Assembly: GCF_011045215.1 (NCBI RefSeq)
Contig: NZ_CP049201.1
DNA length: 64,000 bases
From: Escherichia coli
Lineage (GTDB): Bacteria > Pseudomonadota > Gammaproteobacteria > Enterobacterales > Enterobacteriaceae
Direction: 5' to 3' (one strand)
The stretch's first letter is position 1, and every line of letters begins with the position of its first letter. This document shows positions 5,475 to 21,800 of the stretch, in pieces. The notes below the pieces were generated by a model, which saw only the letters and a list, made by a program, of their open reading frames with translations, was not told the DNA's origin and did no database searches. The translations under genes were made by a program, and so were the position numbers.

Positions 5475-6238
5475 ATACTGCTCGTCTGAACCAGGGCACA
5501 CCATTGTTGCTCAATGCAGTAAGCAAACATTACGCGGAAAATATCGTCCTGAACCACCTGGATTTACATATTCCGGCAGGTCAGTTTGTGGCGGTGGTGG
5601 GCCGCAGCGGTGGTGGCAAAAGTACCCTGCTGCGCCTGCTGGCAGGTCTGGAAACGCCAACCGCTGGCGATGTGTTAGCGGGCACCACACCGCTGGCTGA
5701 AATTCAGGAAGACACGCGAATGATGTTTCAGGATGCGCGTCTGCTACCGTGGAAATCGGTGATTGATAACGTTGGGTTAGGCCTTAAAGGTCAGTGGCGC
5801 AATGCCGCGCGTCGGGCGTTGGCTGCGGTAGGACTGGAGAATCGCGCAGGGGAATGGCCTGCCGCACTTTCAGGCGGGCAGAAACAGCGAGTGGCGCTGG
5901 CAAGAGCGTTGATTCATCGACCGGGTTTATTGTTGCTTGATGAACCGCTCGGGGCGCTGGACGCCTTAACGCGACTCGAGATGCAGGATTTGATTGTGTC
6001 ACTTTGGCAGGAGCACGGCTTTACCGTACTGTTGGTGACGCATGATGTGAGCGAAGCGGTAGCAATGGCTGACCGGGTGTTGTTAATTGAAGAGGGAAAA
6101 ATTGGTCTGGATTTGACAGTGGATATCCCTCGTCCGCGTCGATTAGGGTCGGTGCGATTAGCGGAGCTGGAAGCGGAAGTGTTGCAACGGGTAATGCAGC
6201 GAGGGCATTCTGAACAACCTATTCGGCGTCATGGTTAA
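5471..6238 (+). CDS. ssuB: Aliphatic sulfonate ABC transporter ATP-binding protein, 255 aa
   Basis: Walker [10 protein letters not shown] and ABC signature LSGGQKQR in translation; 4-bp overlap with ssuC. Confidence 0.95.
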
Positions 6239-15150: not shown

Positions 15151-15210
15151 GCGTTAAAAACAATGAAGCCCGCTGAAAAGCGGGCTGAGACTGATGACAA
15201 ACGCAACATT

Positions 15211-15309
15211 GCCTGATGCGCTACGCTTATCAGGCCTACGCGTCCCCTGCAATATTTTGAATTTGCACGATTTTGTAGGCCGGATAAGGCGCTCGTGCCG
15301 CATCCGGCA
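15211..15309. repeat. REP elements (two palindromic units) between aspC and ycbL
   Basis: gcctgatgcgctacgcttatcaggcctac and gtaggccggataaggcgctcgtgccgcatccggca. Confidence 0.8.
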
Positions 15310-15372
15310 TAAACAAAGCGCACTTTGCCAGAAATCCAGGCCCGCATTAAAAGTGGGCTTTTTTATGCGCCT

Positions 15373-16020
15373 TTACCAGACGGGCATTTCGTCTTGTAGG
15401 AAGGGATTATGCAGGCGTTCATAACCAAGTGTGGATAATGGTCCGTGACCCGGAATAAATGTCACGTCATCCCCCAGTGGCAGCAATTTATCTTTGATTG
15501 AAGAAATCAGTTGATTATGATCGCCACGCGGGAAGTCACTGCGCCCTACTCCGCCTTTGAAAATAACATCGCCAGAAATCAGCAGCTTTGCCCGATCATC
15601 AAAAAACACGACATGACCCGGCGTATGCCCAGGGCAATGTAACACCTGTAAAGTCACATTCCCTATGCTGATGGTATCGCCTTCGTTCAGCCAACGATCT
15701 GGCGTCAGCGGCTGGCACTCTTCCAGACCAAACATACGACTTTGCGCAGGCAAGCCTTGCAGCCAGAACTCATCTTCTTTTTCCGGACCAAAAACCGGCA
15801 CGCCGTAATGTTGCGCCAGTTCCGCCGCTGCGCCAACGTGGTCCAGATGACCATGCGTCAGCAGGATCTGCATCAGTGTCAGGCCGCTGTCATCAACTTC
15901 CTGTTTGATTTTTTCCGCATCGCCGCCAGGATCGACCAGTGCGGCCAGGCGGGTTTGTTCACACCAGATCAATGAACAGTTCTGGGAGAATGCGGTGACC
16001 GGAATAATACGATAGTTCAT
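15373..16020 (-). CDS. ycbL: Metallo-beta-lactamase-fold hydrolase (glyoxalase II-like), 215 aa
   Basis: ORF track 215 aa; HGHLDHVG metal-binding motif in translation. Confidence 0.9.
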
Positions 16021-16046
16021 ACTGCCCCTGTTTCGTTAAGCAATTA

Positions 16047-16595
16047 CTACCAGTGCCGTGCTGGCCCGGTATCAATATGCACAAAGTTACTACGTGGGTA
16101 ATATCCTACACCACCTGCGCGCATAGATAACGCGGCTTTGCGAATATTGCTTAACGCGATACCTTCAATATGGAAATCCATCGCCTGGCCTTTAGTGTGA
16201 TAGCTTTTCTTCGCTACTCCACGGCTGCGGGCGCGTAGTTCATTGTTGGTATCAATGGAACGATAACCGGAAATGAGTTGCACCGGTTTGCGCGTGCCTA
16301 ACAACCCTTGCAGGCGATACAACTGGTCGAATAATCCTGGGTCGATGGACTTTATTTTGTTCGCGCGGTAATCGCGGAAAAAATGGTTAAGTTTTGCCAA
16401 TTCTTCCTGAATATAGCCTCTGCCATCGAAAAACTCCGCTTTGATTGACTCTCCGGTATGAAGATTATTGAGTGTCAAAATGCGCGGGCGTGGGGTAGAG
16501 AGTGTTGCAAACGCAGGGGGCGGCAGGATGGCGGCACCGAGTGCAACGCCACCAAGCGCCAGCAATTTGCGGCGATTAGCGTCGAATTTGTCCAT
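16047..16595 (-). CDS. mepK: Murein endopeptidase MepK (YcbK), Tat-exported; start probably MDKFDANRRKLLALGG
   Basis: ORF track 185 aa; twin-arginine motif RRKLLALGG; peptidase M15-like composition. Confidence 0.88.
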   Translation of the reverse strand: MDKFDANRRKLLALGGVALGAAILPPPAFATLSTPRPRILTLNNLHTGESIKAEFFDGRGYIQEELAKLNHFFRDYRANKIKSIDPGLFDQLYRLQGLLGTRKPVQLISGYRSIDTNNELRARSRGVAKKSYHTKGQAMDFHIEGIALSNIRKAALSMRAGGVGYYPRSNFVHIDTGPARHW

Positions 16596-16775
16596 GATAA
16601 TCAAGTCTACAGGTCAATGTTATCGTTTATATGCACTTCTGGCGCACAAGAGGCACCTTAACCGCCCGTAAAGCAGACGTCAAGATGACTCAACCCCAGC
16701 ATTGACGGGGGCTGCAGAGAATCACCCCCAATCATGCTAATTATTACGACAACTGATTTCCCCGAACTACTTCAT

Positions 16776-18623
16776 TTACCTGATTAATTGTTCCGCTTTC
16801 GATACGATTTGCGAGCTGGATCGCGCAGGCAGATCATAATTGTAAATATCTGTACGATACTGGGTACGACCATCTGCACCAACAAAGGCCGTCAGGTAGT
16901 AGAGATTCACCGGAATCGACTGCCGAATATTGACGTAACGTGTATCACCCTGCTTCAGCGCATCAGAAATACGTTTGTCATTCCAGCCTGCATCCTGCAA
17001 CAGCATATTCGCCAGATCGGAAGCTTTATTCACTCGTACACAGCCTGAGCTCAATGCGCGTGTATCACGCTTGAACAGATTGTGGTTCGGCGTGTCATGC
17101 AAATAAATGGCCTCTGAACTCGGCATATTGAATTTATAGCGCCCCAGCGAGTTCCGTGGGCCTGGAGCCTGCTGGAAGCGGAACGGTAAATTCGAGGCCG
17201 TGATTGTAGACCAGTCAACCTGCCATGGGTCAATCGCTTCTCTGCTGTTCCAGCCGCGCATCACCGTATAGCCATGGCTTTCGAGATATCCCGGATCGTT
17301 GCGCACTTTCGGCAGAATATCTTTGCGTGCCAGAGTTGGTGGTACGTTCCACGGCGGGTTTACCACTACGTTGTTAAGGGCACTGCTCATCATCGGCGTT
17401 TTGCGATCGGGGCGACCGACAATGACTCGCGAATCCAGCACCTGATTGCCGTTCTGATAGTAGACCAGCGAATAGGCCGGAATGTTAACCATGATCCCGG
17501 TAGAAAGCTCTGTTGGCAGCAAGCGCAATCGCTGGATGTTGAGTGCCAACACGCCAGCGCGCTGGGCGGGCGTTACGTTTAACCAGTCCCGCGTTGCCGG
17601 GCCAATAGCACCATCTGCCCCCAATCCTTGCCATGCCTGAAAACGTTTAACGGCTTCCACCAGTTCATTATCGTAGGCGGCACGAACGGCAGGCGCAGGT
17701 TTACTACGAGACGTCGTTTGCTTGTCCATCGGCTTAGTTTCTGCTGTTTCAACAGTAACAGCGGATGGGCTGACTACCGCGTCAGTTGGCGTGTCATCGC
17801 CAGGTAGCGTAATTTTCGGTCCCCCGTTCAACATGCCTGTGCGTTGCAATATTTCGCGCAACGCCGGTACGTCGTTACTCCACTGCCCTGGGCGCAACGT
17901 TGCTTTGCCGGTCAGTTGGGGCCACGGTTTGGTGTCACTGAGTAAGGCCAGTAACGATTCATGCATCGCCGCATATTGCGGATGCTGCGGTGCCAGTCCT
18001 GCAACAAACGTAGGCAATTGACCTTTATCCAGCGCTAGCTGCCATTGGTTAATCACCGAAAGCGGCGGCGTTGAAAGCGCATAAGGTTTACTGCTATATA
18101 GCCAGCGAGTGCCTTTGACCGGAATATTTGCAATGAAATGGAGATAGCCCATCATCGCATCAGAGAGCACCACGTCACGTGCCATCCCGTTAACACCAGG
18201 ATCGGTCAGTAACTCTACCCATTTATTAAACTGCGGCTGGAAACCAGCAATCGCCACCTCTGCCAGCTGTTGCTGGAAGGCTTTAACAGCATCACGGTTT
18301 TCCCACATGGGTTGCATATCGCGTGCGGCATACAACAGTTGAAGCTGGTTAAGATAAACCGGCTTGTAACCTGCGGGTAATTGAGATTCGATTTGCGTGC
18401 GGGCTTTTTCTGCCGCACCTTCAGGCAATGGCTGGATCCCCGCCATTATTGCCGTGGCTTGCGCCTGCGGCAGTGCCTCGCCCTGTTCACTGACAGCCAC
18501 CGGGCTGTCGCCAGGGATTACTTCAGGCTCATCGGCCTGCGCATTGAACAGTGGAGCGAATGTTACGGCCAGGCACAAACTGATTGCCGACAGCCGACGA
18601 CCACACATCATATTAAGCAACAT
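16776..18623 (-). CDS. ldtD: L,D-transpeptidase LdtD (YcbB), 615 aa
   Basis: ORF track 615 aa; signal peptide; catalytic motif SSGCVRV (YkuD-type Cys). Confidence 0.92.
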
Positions 18624-18883
18624 CCCTTGCCCCCTGTTTTTATCATACTCTGAATAGCCAGGCTGTTATTTTACGACTTGCCTGTACAACGCCAATACTC
18701 ACGAAAGTATGACGAGCAAGCCTGTTACTCATCAGGCTTATCTTCAGTATATAAACGCCGATACGTTTTTACATAACCTAATGTAAAGAAGTTTAAAGAA
18801 AAGCGCGCCGTAATGTGCCACTTTTTTAGTGCAGAAACGGAGTTTTCGGAAAAAGAAAAGGCGGCATTGCTGCCGCCTTAATT

Positions 18884-21800
18884 TTAACTCGCCTGAGAAG
18901 GCGCTTCGTCACTTCCTGGAAGCGTTTCAGGGAGTTGCGGCGCAAATCCTCGCAGGCCGACGACGTGAACGTGTTCGGTATTCTGGAAGACTTTACGCAC
19001 CAGTTTATAGGTGGTGCCTTTCTCCGGGCTGATATTTTCCGGCGCTGCGATGATGAGCTGCATTTGCAAACGTTCACACAATTCAAACAGCGTGGCGATA
19101 GAACGAGCATCCAGTCGCGCTGCTTCATCGAGGAACAGCAGGCGGCAAGGAGAGATATCTTTACCGCGCAGGCGGCGAGATTCATCTTCCCAGCTTTGTA
19201 CCACCATCACCAGAATCGACATACCGGTACCAATCGCCTCACCGGTCGACAATGCACCAGACTCTGCGCGCAACCAGCCATCGGAACCACGGTTAACCTC
19301 AACTTCCATTTCCAGATAGTTGCGGTAATCCAGCAGTTCTTCGCCAATGGTCTGCGGCGTGCGCTGCCCCATATCAATCTGCGGATTAAGACGCTGATAC
19401 AATTTCGCCAGCGCTTCCGAGAAGGTCAGACGGTTGCTGTTAAACAGATCCTGATGCTGCTCGTGCTGTTCAGAGAGCACATCCAACAGCATGGCGTGGG
19501 TTTCACGCACGTTCACGTTGAGGCGCACGCTGTTCACCTGACCAAACGATACGTTCTGCAACCCCTGGTTGAGCATACGGATACGGTTCTGCTCGCGCTG
19601 AATGGTTTTACGAATGATGTTCGCCACGCTGCGGGAACTGATCGCCAGTTTCTGTTCGCGGGAGGTTAACTCTTCGGTCAGACGGCTAAGTTCGATCTCC
19701 ATCTGTTCGATAGCTTCCACCGGATCATCGGTACGAATAATATCCTGACGAATACGTTCACGCAGATGCTGATAAACCGCCACGAAGAACTGAATTTTAC
19801 GCTCCGGACGTTTCGGATCTTCCGACATGCGCAGCACGTCGCGCAGATGTTCGTTATCCGCCACCGCCAGACGCAGCGCACCTAACGCCTTATCCGACAT
19901 GGAACGCAAATCATCAGCGGAGAGATAAGCCAGCTCACGACGGTGTAAGCGGCGCTCAACGCCGTTATCTTTCACCATGCGCATCACCGCACACCAGCCC
20001 GCTTTCGCGGTCACTACCTGCTCGCGCATCTCAAAGTAATCACGCTCCAGCTTGCGCAGTTTGCGGGTCAGGTTGTCCATCTCCGCTTCGCAGAAGGTGA
20101 GCGCTTTTTCCAGTTGATTGCGGCGCGAACGGTTATTGCTCAGTTGTGCATGCAGCTCGTCACGGCGAATACGTGCCCGCTCTTCTGCCCCGCTATCAGC
20201 ACGCACGCCGATATCCTGCAATTCACGTTGCAGATCGTTGAGTAGCTCTTTTTTGGTGTCGTAAGAACTTTTCAGCGAAGCCAGCACCTGGTTGTACTGA
20301 CTCAACTGCGCTGCGTGACCGCGCAACGCTTCGCGAGCGCGGGTACGCTCCGCTTCCGCCTGTTCCAGACGTTCACGCAGTTTTTCGTTGAGATCGTTGT
20401 TACCGCTAAGCATTTCTGCCGAGTCAGAATAGCTAAAGTGCGCACGACGCTGCACCACTTCCGTCAGGGCAAACGCCTGCTGACGGGCATCGCGCTGCAT
20501 CTGCTGAGAGTACGCGTAATCTTCTTTTAACTGTTCGAACTGTTCCGGGTCGCTCTGCAATACCGAAACGATCGGTTCCAGTTTCGCCAGTTGATTGCCA
20601 AACTGCTGAACAAAACGCGCGGCTTCCTGGGCTTCATCCAGACGTTCGCGGATTTCATCGACGCGATCCGCCAGGCTGTCATCAGCCAACAGGTTGAGAC
20701 GCGGCAGAATGCGGTTCAGCGCCGTAACGCCTTCTTTCGCCTGCTCAAACTGAATACGCTGCTGCTGGTTATCATTTTCATGATTACTCAACGCCCGCTC
20801 CAGTTCGACGCGACGGCTGTTCAGTTGACGGATTTCTGCTTCCGGGTCAGACTCAAACGCCACCGCCAGATGACTGCCGATAAAGCGGCTGAACGCCTGA
20901 TGCAGACGCTGGGTTTTCTGTACGTCAAAGGAGAGCGTGGCGAAGCGTTCGGAAAGCACTTCACGCTCGGCATGGAGGCTTTCAATACGGCTTTCACGCG
21001 CAGCACGACCAAACAGCGGCACTTCCGGGAAACGTGAATAACGCCACTGACGATCGGCGATTTTCACCACTACCGCTTTTTCCAGCTCATCAACGCTGAA
21101 CACGCTGTCATCGAATGACTGCGGATCCCCTTCGATCAAATAGAGATCTTCCGGGCAATCGGTCAAGCCTTCCAGATGTTCGGTTACCTGTGACAGATCT
21201 GGCACCACGATGGCGTGGCGTGACGGGCCATACAGCGCTGAGAAGTACGGCGCATCTTCAAGGCTTACGTCGTCATAAATTTCTGACAGCAGCACGCCGC
21301 CAAAACGTTCCGCCAGCGCATTCAAACGCTGGTCTTCAGAACCACCTGGCTGGCTTAAACGTTCGATCTCTTCATCGACGGCGTTTTTGCGCGCGCCCAC
21401 TTCATCGCGTTCAACAATCGCTTCGCGCTCACGCTCAAGCAACTGTTGCAGATATTCGGTGACATCCTGGCTGGAGGAGAACTCTTCGCCGCACTGTTCG
21501 CTCAACTGATTGAGGCTGTTTTGCGCTGCCAGCCAAACCGGCGCGCGCTGCATCAAACTCTGAATGCGAGACTGCAGCTGTTCCTGCTCCTGACGCAGTG
21601 CCATACGCTCTTCGCGGGCGTTAGAAACGCTGTCGGAAAGAGAGGCAATGCGCGCTTCCAGTTCCTGATGCAGGGCTTCCAGTTCGTCGATATCAAAATT
21701 CTTGCCCTGACGTTTGCAGAAATCTGCCAGCAGGCGTTCGGCTTCTTGCTGCTCGCGCAAACGCTGTTCCAGTTCGCTTAAGCGCATCCGCAGCGGCTGA

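Follow-up and report, generated by a model that had tools for sequence, protein, structure and literature searches.

The genes for making and cutting 3-3 peptidoglycan cross-links, ldtD and mepK, are neighbors on the Escherichia coli chromosome, and we conclude, with a probability of about 0.8, that ldtD and mepK-gloC are adjacent but separate transcription units governed by different envelope-stress regulators. The analysis concerns a 64,000-nucleotide stretch of contig NZ_CP049201.1 (the window), in which mukB, ldtD, mepK and gloC follow one another. In the model that we propose, mukB transcription would end in a strong terminator, and ldtD would be expressed from a promoter of its own, marked by a conserved CpxR-like box and induced by Cpx. 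The ldtD transcript would then meet a structure-conserved hairpin that resembles an intrinsic terminator in many relatives and is probably leaky in E. coli, whereas mepK and gloC would be cotranscribed from a promoter within the ldtD-mepK spacer (TTGACG-N17-TAAGGT) and from a sigma-E start located between mid-ldtD and the hairpin. The balance of making and cutting cross-links would be struck via two regulons, with ldtD under Cpx and mepK-gloC under sigma-E, possibly supplemented by read-through and with no obligatory cotranscript, MepK being essential once LdtD activity rises, as in a synthase/hydrolase pair.

The locus is the known ldtD (ycbB, b0925) - mepK (ycbK, b0926) - gloC (ycbL, b0927) region of E. 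coli K-12 and belongs to the core chromosome: of 5426 complete genomes, 5425 contain window positions 15300-18900, with 95-99.5% identity. RefSeq annotates the matched stretch as ldtD, mepK ('YcbK family protein'), gloC and mukB. An original prediction, made from the letters of this DNA, had named ldtD, mepK and ycbL as three co-oriented genes; Pfam domains and RefSeq annotation agree with these identities, and each of the three is encoded by the minus strand. The interval assigned to them, 16047..18623, holds ldtD and mepK and leaves gloC/ycbL outside. The spacing that it gave is correct for the 26-bp gap between mepK and gloC. For ldtD and mepK it had counted from the TTG at 16604, where the longest mepK open reading frame begins, which yields 171 bp; the TTG position reads CTG in most genera, and RefSeq as well as all 76 relatives examined place the start at ATG 16595, from which the gap is 180 bp.

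Control regions of ldtD and mepK-gloC

Upstream of ldtD, the intrinsic terminator of mukB is predicted to be strong and to isolate ldtD from mukB transcription; its GC stem and T-run are partly conserved in an alignment of the mukB-ldtD spacer. Between this terminator and ldtD, the direct repeat GTAAAGAAGTTTAAA has one mismatch to the CpxR box consensus GTAAA-N5-GTAAA and is a putative CpxR site. A CpxR-like box with at most one mismatch was found upstream of ldtD in all 24 of 24 sampled genera, and the block TTTATATACTGA, which follows the box on the ldtD side, is at least 90% conserved in the same alignment. The region fits an independent, Cpx-controlled ldtD promoter. According to two papers, ldtD is a Cpx-induced member of the Cpx regulon (PMC4791840; PMC12729407), and over-activation of Cpx is toxic in an ldtD-dependent manner (PMC4791840). 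As a separate observation, E. coli, Salmonella and Citrobacter have 148-177 bp between the box and the ldtD ATG, and the other sampled genera 79-97 bp; the ldtD leader of the former three (window 18624..18782) therefore contains ~70 extra bases.

The ldtD-mepK spacer was aligned for 52 non-redundant Enterobacteriaceae, in which it measures 167-188 bp, with the exception of Salmonella (258-259 bp). Fourfold synonymous sites in the adjacent 3' third of ldtD served as neutral yardstick, with a mean majority-base frequency of 0.60 and 9% of sites conserved to at least 90%; five features of the spacer (blocks A, C and E and hairpins B and D) rise above it. Block C agrees with the sigma-70 pattern in five of six positions of TTGACG, in a 17-nt spacer and in T1, A2 and T6 of TAAGGT. 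Across the 52 genera CTTGAC is invariant and TA..GT is conserved, the -10 variants TAATGT and TATGGT still retain T1, A2 and T6, and the stretch in between is fixed in length and variable in sequence. Yersinia, Serratia and Erwinia carry TTGACT-N17-TA(A/T)GGT at this place. We infer that block C is a putative housekeeping sigma-70 promoter of mepK-gloC. An alternative RNA stem across this block (CCUUGAC/GUUAAGG) was rejected in favor of the promoter reading, as pair 130-149 is unpaired in 23 of the 52 sequences without compensation and G.G stands in place of the outer C-G pairs in Yersinia, Serratia and Erwinia.

Block A, directly behind the ldtD stop codon, consists of two halves in which 9 of 12 and 4 of 8 columns are at least 90% conserved, compared with 1 of 11 in the gap between them. 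No indels were found in it across 52 genera, so that its spacing is exact. Its -10-like half reads GTCGTAA in E. coli, a good match to the extracytoplasmic function (ECF) type, and GTCAAA, TCTAA or GGTCAGAA in relatives, whereas AGTAGTT at the -35 position matches GGAACTT poorly. Block A is promoter-like, yet lies upstream of a terminator-like hairpin; it may represent either an ECF/sigma-E-like promoter or an element of the ldtD 3' untranslated region (UTR).

This hairpin, hairpin B, comprises the G5/C5 stem-loop at 16706..16729 noted in the original prediction. The stem-loop is present, reads CGGGGGCTGCAGAGAATCACCCCC on the plus strand with G5 at 16707-16711 and C5 at 16725-16729, and forms the core of a structure that folds with -18.3 kcal/mol as minus-strand RNA, with a run of five G-C pairs that is extended further. 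On its own, the E. coli hairpin region is only marginally more stable than chance (z = -2.0, 4 of 100 shuffles equally stable), and we take hairpin B as real because of the comparative data. A hairpin is found at this position in 52 of 52 Enterobacteriaceae, GC-rich in nearly all of them and built from 44 distinct central helices, with a mean z of -3.4 against dinucleotide shuffles and values below -2 in 41 of 52. Hairpin B is hence conserved in structure, not in sequence. Within the 8 nt that follow the stem, at least four T are present in 31 and at least five in 20 of the 52 sequences. The E. coli tail GTCAATGC contains two T in 8, fewer than the at least five expected of an intrinsic-terminator U-tract, the Salmonella tail GTCGTTGC is likewise T-poor, and a terminator scan of the E. 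coli ldtD-mepK spacer returned no match. Hairpin B is thus terminator-like in many genera, with an E. coli copy that has lost its U-tract and is probably leaky.

Further downstream, hairpin D is nearly invariant and constitutes the sole helix of the RNAalifold consensus, with four pairs and no covariation. In block E, 15 of 18 columns are at least 90% conserved, and the 16 nt preceding the mepK ATG are almost invariant across Enterobacteriaceae; no recognizable Shine-Dalgarno sequence for mepK was seen in this block. Block E might be a site of small-RNA or translational control. According to one paper, MepK protein is increased in an sdsR mutant, and mepK mRNA is part of the SdsR regulon (PMC10954441). 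The additional length in Salmonella is due to an insertion of ~80 bp in the mepK leader after hairpin D that leaves all conserved blocks intact; in L018 (~5860..5945) and L023 (S. enterica subsp. diarizonae, arizonae) it shows a partial duplication, AGAAGTGCATATAC / AGAAGTGTATTAAC.

Taken as a whole, the spacer of E. coli is more stably folded than its shuffles (z = -3.99), a signal that stems from local hairpins, and no Rfam family matched the spacer at E <= 1. Several other candidates were dismissed. Long-range pairing between the 3' end of ldtD (AAUCAGGU) and the start of mepK appears in the E. coli minimum-energy fold and is absent from the RNAalifold consensus; its pair counts do not exceed those of shuffles (87.6% paired versus 87.1%), with many unpaired cells. 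A mini-ORF behind the ldtD stop codon (UAAAUG AAG UAG) varies in length and presence among genera, and a 'minigene' paper naming ycbK deals with an unrelated Bacillus gene.

A sigma-E input into mepK-gloC is documented in the literature. In PMC2731931, ycbK-ycbL is listed as a sigma-E-induced unit (9.7-fold and 6.6-fold), ycbK having been picked up by Kabir and by Rhodius as well; the main text of this paper does not name ldtD/b0925, and the five-pathway study places ycbK-ycbL in its sigma-E table only. In Salmonella, a sigma-E chromatin immunoprecipitation (ChIP)-seq peak was assigned to ycbK (PMC4577112). We mapped the corresponding ChIP-quantitative PCR (qPCR) primers (PMC4577112 supplementary file 3) on Salmonella L018/L023 and on the window, where the amplicon falls into the coding 3' end of ldtD. 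A GAACAT-N18-TCTGA motif ends just before this amplicon in Salmonella. It was rejected as a candidate for E. coli, which reads GTCGAT...CCTGA there, and synonymous positions vary freely among genera.

GGAACTT-N16-TCAAA is the published sigma-E consensus, its spacer being allowed to vary from 15 to 19 nt, and the regions searched with it extended up to 1,100-2,000 nt upstream of genes (PMC1312014); our scoring is a simple consensus heuristic other than the published weight matrix. The best match near mepK in E. coli by this measure is GGAACTC-N17-TCAAT inside ldtD, and equally good ones occur ~1 per 4.5 kb in the window. It overlies codons for a conserved stretch of LdtD, and its GG derives from a CGG codon. 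Neither other genera nor a divergent E. coli-clade genome share the CGG/AAC/TCG codons used here, which drift like neutral sites; the motif was hence rejected as a conserved promoter and could be either an internal promoter specific to E. coli or a match by chance. Since every candidate sigma-E start lies downstream of most or all of ldtD, induction of MepK and GloC would be uncoupled from LdtD synthesis. A sigma-E start upstream of hairpin B would make it understandable that E. coli and Salmonella have lost the U-tract. None of the papers found in the literature searched names both mepK and rpoE, and it seems that the link to sigma-E, which was established when the gene was called ycbK, is rarely connected with the role of MepK in 3-3 cross-link turnover.

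The mepK-gloC junction, in turn, gave no terminator or promoter match in the scan. Given this, its shortness and the sigma-E response of both genes, we take mepK-gloC to be an operon.

Table 1 Features of the mukB-ldtD-mepK-gloC region (window coordinates), in the direction of transcription
Feature	Position	Strand	Description
mukB intrinsic terminator	18850..18879	-	AAGGCGGCAGCAATGCCGCCTT + TTCTTTTT; predicted by terminator scan, 9-bp stem with 6 GC pairs, T-run
CpxR-box-like direct repeat	18783..18797	+ (opposite ldtD)	GTAAAGAAGTTTAAA; 159 bp upstream of ldtD ATG
-10-like TATACT	18746..18751	-	Putative ldtD promoter; inside conserved TTTATATACTGA
ldtD (ycbB)	18623..16776	-	L,D-transpeptidase, 615 aa; catalytic Cys528, codon 17042..17040
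Sigma-E-like motif	17127..17155	-	GGAACTC-N17-TCAAT; inside ldtD, 532 nt upstream of mepK ATG
Equivalent of Salmonella ycbK sigma-E ChIP-qPCR amplicon	16823..16889	-	ldtD coding 3' end
Block A	16744..16771	-	AGTAGTTC-N12-TGTCGTAA; directly after ldtD stop codon
Hairpin B	16698..16738	-	41 nt; follows ldtD, contains G5/C5 stem-loop
Block C	16655..16683	-	Putative sigma-70-type promoter; TTGACG (16683..16678), 17 nt, TAAGGT (16660..16655)
Hairpin D	16630..16648	-	UGUGCGC-CAGAA-GUGCAUA; near predicted 5' end of block C transcript
Block E	16593..16611	-	TGTAGACTTGATTATC; precedes mepK ATG (16595..16593)
mepK (ycbK)	16595..16047	-	182 aa; Tat-exported zinc endopeptidase, M15/LAS type (DUF882); R8, R9
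mepK-gloC junction	16021..16046	-	TAATTGCTTAACGAAACAGGGGCAGT; 26 bp, GGGG ribosome-binding site
gloC (ycbL)	16020..15373	-	215 aa; metallo-beta-lactamase-fold hydrolase; THGHLDH motif

One transcript or separate units

The original prediction had suggested coordinated expression of the three genes, with a shared transcript as its test. A single ldtD-mepK-gloC operon, in which most mepK/gloC mRNA would arise by read-through from the Cpx-controlled ldtD promoter and induction would be stoichiometric, is in line with the co-orientation and deeply conserved order of the genes, with an E. coli spacer that holds no canonical terminator and a hairpin B followed by two T in 8 nt, and with the tight arrangement in a distant locus (L086), where a 35-bp gap separates the YcbB-type gene from mepK and mepK overlaps the gloC-like gene. 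We nevertheless regard it as quite unlikely. A spacer of ~180 bp has been kept, including the conserved TTGACG-N17-TAAGGT and the structure-conserved hairpin; motif and literature evidence thus points to an internal promoter between ldtD and mepK, and of the two junctions that of mepK and gloC has the short length of an operon, whereas that of ldtD and mepK does not. The regulatory assignments differ as well, with ycbK-ycbL responding to sigma-E and ldtD unlisted in PMC2731931, and with ldtD in the Cpx regulon and ycbK-ycbL confined to the sigma-E table of the five-pathway study. Moreover, the ldtD-dependent toxicity of strong Cpx activation (PMC4791840) would be unexpected if MepK rose together with LdtD. 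The coupling of a conserved pair therefore survives from the original prediction, while the single three-gene unit is not supported, in view of the putative internal promoter, the hairpin and the division between Cpx and sigma-E; independent promoters, the very result that it had named as refuting a cotranscript, are favored by conserved block C and the separate regulons.

Block A and hairpin B (16771..16698) could also form an RNA element, be it a small RNA from the ldtD 3' UTR, in which a conserved single-stranded seed would precede the terminator of the parent gene as in CpxQ, a short sigma-E transcript of the MicL kind or a leaky attenuator of entry into mepK. The strong conservation of block A immediately upstream of a hairpin that carries a T-run in many genera is compatible with this, as are the favorable fold of the whole spacer and the position of a sigma-E start ~6 nt past GTCGTAA, which would coincide with the first base of hairpin B. 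We consider such an element unlikely, since exact spacing without indels is a trait of promoters or protein sites rather than of a seed, E. coli and Salmonella are without the U-tail needed for termination and Hfq binding, and a transcript started at block A would span only ~45 nt with no conserved unpaired region. The Rfam search likewise yielded no match, and literature searches that paired mepK with ldtD or UTR brought up no such RNA.

Separate units for ldtD and mepK-gloC thus remain our preferred reading, against which the following points weigh. The promoters and the termination proposed here rest on motifs, on conservation and on arrays and ChIP from the literature. A hairpin without U-tract, in a spacer where the scan detected no terminator, could permit substantial read-through from ldtD to mepK, and the L086 arrangement looks like a true operon. 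Among the candidate sigma-E promoters, block A has a poor -35 element and the best E. coli motif is unconserved. That ldtD is missing from a single sigma-E table is, as a negative, weak.

Conservation of the gene pair and its proteins

That ldtD immediately precedes mepK is an old arrangement, maintained by selection and found well beyond enterics. A MepK scan of species-representative genomes yielded 80 Enterobacteriaceae loci, 76 of them with enough flank, and ldtD is directly upstream of mepK and co-oriented in all 76, within a conserved block mukB-ldtD-mepK-gloC / aspC. It also adjoins mepK upstream in Yersinia, Serratia and Erwinia. As the mukB-ldtD-mepK-gloC-aspC-ompF block is syntenic across Enterobacterales, conservation inside it proves little, and the two genes might in principle be neighbors merely through inherited enterobacterial gene order, with no functional meaning. 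Distant MepK homologs, drawn from 50%-identity cluster representatives, render this very improbable. A YcbB-type gene (Scaffold, PG_binding_1 and YkuD domains) lies immediately upstream of mepK in L085 (MepK identity 66%), and likewise in L086 (56%; a Lactamase_B gene being the one that mepK overlaps), L087 (48%) and L091 (42%), while L088 (45%) has no YkuD neighbor and two further contigs were too short to tell. In L087 the pair is flanked by Peptidase_M75/DUF1513 and acyltransferase genes, mukB is missing and the Lactamase_B gene is 3 kb off; in L091 the neighbors are completely different (spermidine synthase/TANGO2 and a PEP-utilising enzyme), with neither mukB nor an adjacent gloC. Because L087 and L091 retain the pair in changed neighborhoods, ldtD-mepK is kept independently of its surroundings, and the linkage of gloC is narrower than that of ldtD and mepK. 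Published genetics also link the activities of LdtD and MepK (10.1101/2021.02.12.430937). A genomic coupling of the two activities that oppose each other on 3-3 cross-links is hence supported, by adjacency far beyond E. coli and by the published lethality of ldtD without mepK.

The LdtD protein contains a YkuD domain (PF03734, E = 4.6e-26, 92.6 bits at a cut-off of 23.4, residues 376-542) along with Scaffold (PF20142) and PG_binding_1 (PF01471) domains, i.e. the YcbB architecture, and the solved YcbB chain 6NTW_A is covered along its entire length by residues 31-615 (E = 0, 1325.7 bits). In the YkuD family the catalytic Cys resides in SxGCxR and is preceded by a conserved His. The SSGCVRV active site of the original prediction occupies residues 525-531, fits this motif with Cys528, and the conserved His precedes it. 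LdtD is periplasmic and makes 3-3 (mDAP3-mDAP3; mDAP, meso-diaminopimelic acid) peptidoglycan cross-links, as stated in PMC12729407, 10.1101/2021.02.12.430937 and PMC4791840.

MepK matches Peptidase_M15_2 (DUF882, PF05951; E = 3e-61, 206 bits at a cut-off of 27) and, as a second family, PF08291 (M15_3; 5.8e-13). Its N-terminus, MDKFDANRRKLLALGG, includes the predicted RRKLLALGG signal with R8 and R9, and the twin-arginine signal peptide is MDKFDANRRKLLALGGVALGAAILPPPAFA. Among 40 homologs with 40-66% identity, R9, H133, D140, H173 and D175 are invariant and R8 is nearly so. The residues follow the LAS pattern H133-x6-D140 ... H173, suggesting H133, D140 and H173 (plus D175) as zinc ligands, and a profile of the family can be aligned over H-x6-D and the C-terminal His region with 1LBU, a zinc D-Ala-D-Ala carboxypeptidase (E = 4.6e-4); a sequence search for a structure of MepK itself found none. 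MepK was reportedly first described in PNAS in 2019, and the lethality of ycbB production in a mepK deletion confirms Chodisetti and Reddy 2019 (10.1101/2021.02.12.430937). Experimentally, the protein is a substrate of the twin-arginine translocation (Tat) pathway, with Tat-dependent export and Zn as cofactor (PMC8262268). Three papers describe it as a 3-3 (mDAP-mDAP) endopeptidase and production of ycbB/ldtD as lethal in a mepK deletion (10.1101/2021.02.12.430937; PMC8262268; PMC12729407); purified Mep enzymes have dual 4-3/3-3 activity according to Voedts et al. (10.1101/2021.02.12.430937). GloC carries a Lactamase_B domain (PF00753, E = 1.1e-40) whose THGHLDH fits the HxHxDH metal motif, and the RefSeq product name, hydroxyacylglutathione hydrolase GloC, points to a putative glyoxalase II.

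Homologs of MepK with 480-730 aa make up 26 of the best 150 cluster representatives. They (for instance P0148, P0151, P0162, P0172, P0177, P0184, P0190 and P0202) begin with an N-terminal DUF882 followed by an Ala/Pro-rich low-complexity region, and three of four sequences read end in a conserved C-terminal tail of ~70-100 aa (LAKLTFAYGP..MAHFAHMKQ..TATFARLSRP) without Pfam match. A 'Rosetta stone' fusion of DUF882 with YkuD was rejected, as the homologs of 550-730 aa are without a YkuD domain.

Additional signals were noted downstream of mepK. The sequence TGTCAGGCCGCTGTCATC (window 15877..15894, plus strand) inside gloC is a reported intragenic PhoB ChIP-seq site; in that study, the occupancy of RNA polymerase was determined both in mepK and in gloC, at positions flanking the site, with higher gloC expression in a phoB deletion (PMC10294691). 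The gloC-aspC intergenic region (15160..15360) harbors repeats of the repetitive extragenic palindromic (REP) type and terminator-like hairpins facing both convergent genes. On the minus strand, 15232..15274 scores 53 bits with Rfam ES036 (CssrF), above the gathering score, and a match to naRNA4 at 15278..15314 is sub-threshold.

The LdtD-MepK balance and known systems

A tentative, rather doubtful extension of separate regulation is that the ~180-bp junction acts as a device setting the LdtD:MepK ratio, with Cpx acting on ldtD, sigma-E and a housekeeping promoter on mepK-gloC, and the hairpin in between as a leaky stop for ldtD transcripts and possibly a 5' or 3' stabiliser. The rpoE-rseABC operon is negatively regulated by Cpx (PMC6737893), and because of this repression strong Cpx activation could raise LdtD without MepK. 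If the device existed, the toxicity of Cpx over-activation (PMC4791840) would result from LdtD induction without matching MepK and should be suppressed by more mepK, and block A would serve the junction as its entry point for sigma-E or for regulation. Cross-linking by LdtD bypasses the penicillin-binding proteins (PBPs), so that most beta-lactams are resisted, and the bypass needs MepK; the LdtD/MepK balance accordingly bears on resistance and on envelope-stress physiology. The functional pairing of LdtD and MepK is already published and the locus is well studied. What is modestly useful here is the conservation of the pair beyond enterics, its division between two stress regulons and the little-connected link between sigma-E and MepK.

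Compared with the ldtD-mepK-gloC locus of E. coli K-12, this region presents the same DNA and annotation and does not differ in kind, with function, Tat export and regulation by Cpx and sigma-E as published; added here are a comparison of both intergenic regions among relatives and a measure of how deeply the pair is conserved. Among LAS/M15 zinc peptidases (1LBU of Streptomyces albus, VanX and MepA), MepK shares the M15_2 and M15_3 matches and H133/D140/H173, but is remote in sequence, carries a Tat signal and has a reported preference for mDAP-mDAP cross-links.

The small RNA CpxQ derives from the cpxP 3' UTR, and the sigma-E-dependent MicL originates inside cutC. The ldtD-mepK junction resembles them in a conserved segment upstream of the parental terminator hairpin and in a Cpx gene placed beside a sigma-E unit. 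It differs from both in the E. coli hairpin without U-tail, the promoter-like spacing of block A and the missing Rfam match, and is known here from sequence alone.

Other couplings of synthases and hydrolases in the growth of the E. coli sacculus are found among the penicillin-binding proteins and MepM, MepS and MepH: in 10.1101/2021.02.12.430937, MepM is required for the 4-3 and 3-3 modes of cross-linking and MepK for the 3-3 mode. That paper contains no 'operon', 'locus' or 'upstream', and uses 'adjacent' once, of glycan strands, and 'downstream' once, of a plasmid promoter (10.1101/2021.02.12.430937). As with LdtD and MepK, growth by a given cross-linking enzyme needs cleavage of cross-links. 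To our knowledge, the genes of MepM, MepS and MepH are not neighbors of their synthase genes. Their coupling is discussed as enzymatic and genetic, whereas ldtD and mepK are, in addition, fixed gene neighbors across distant Proteobacteria.

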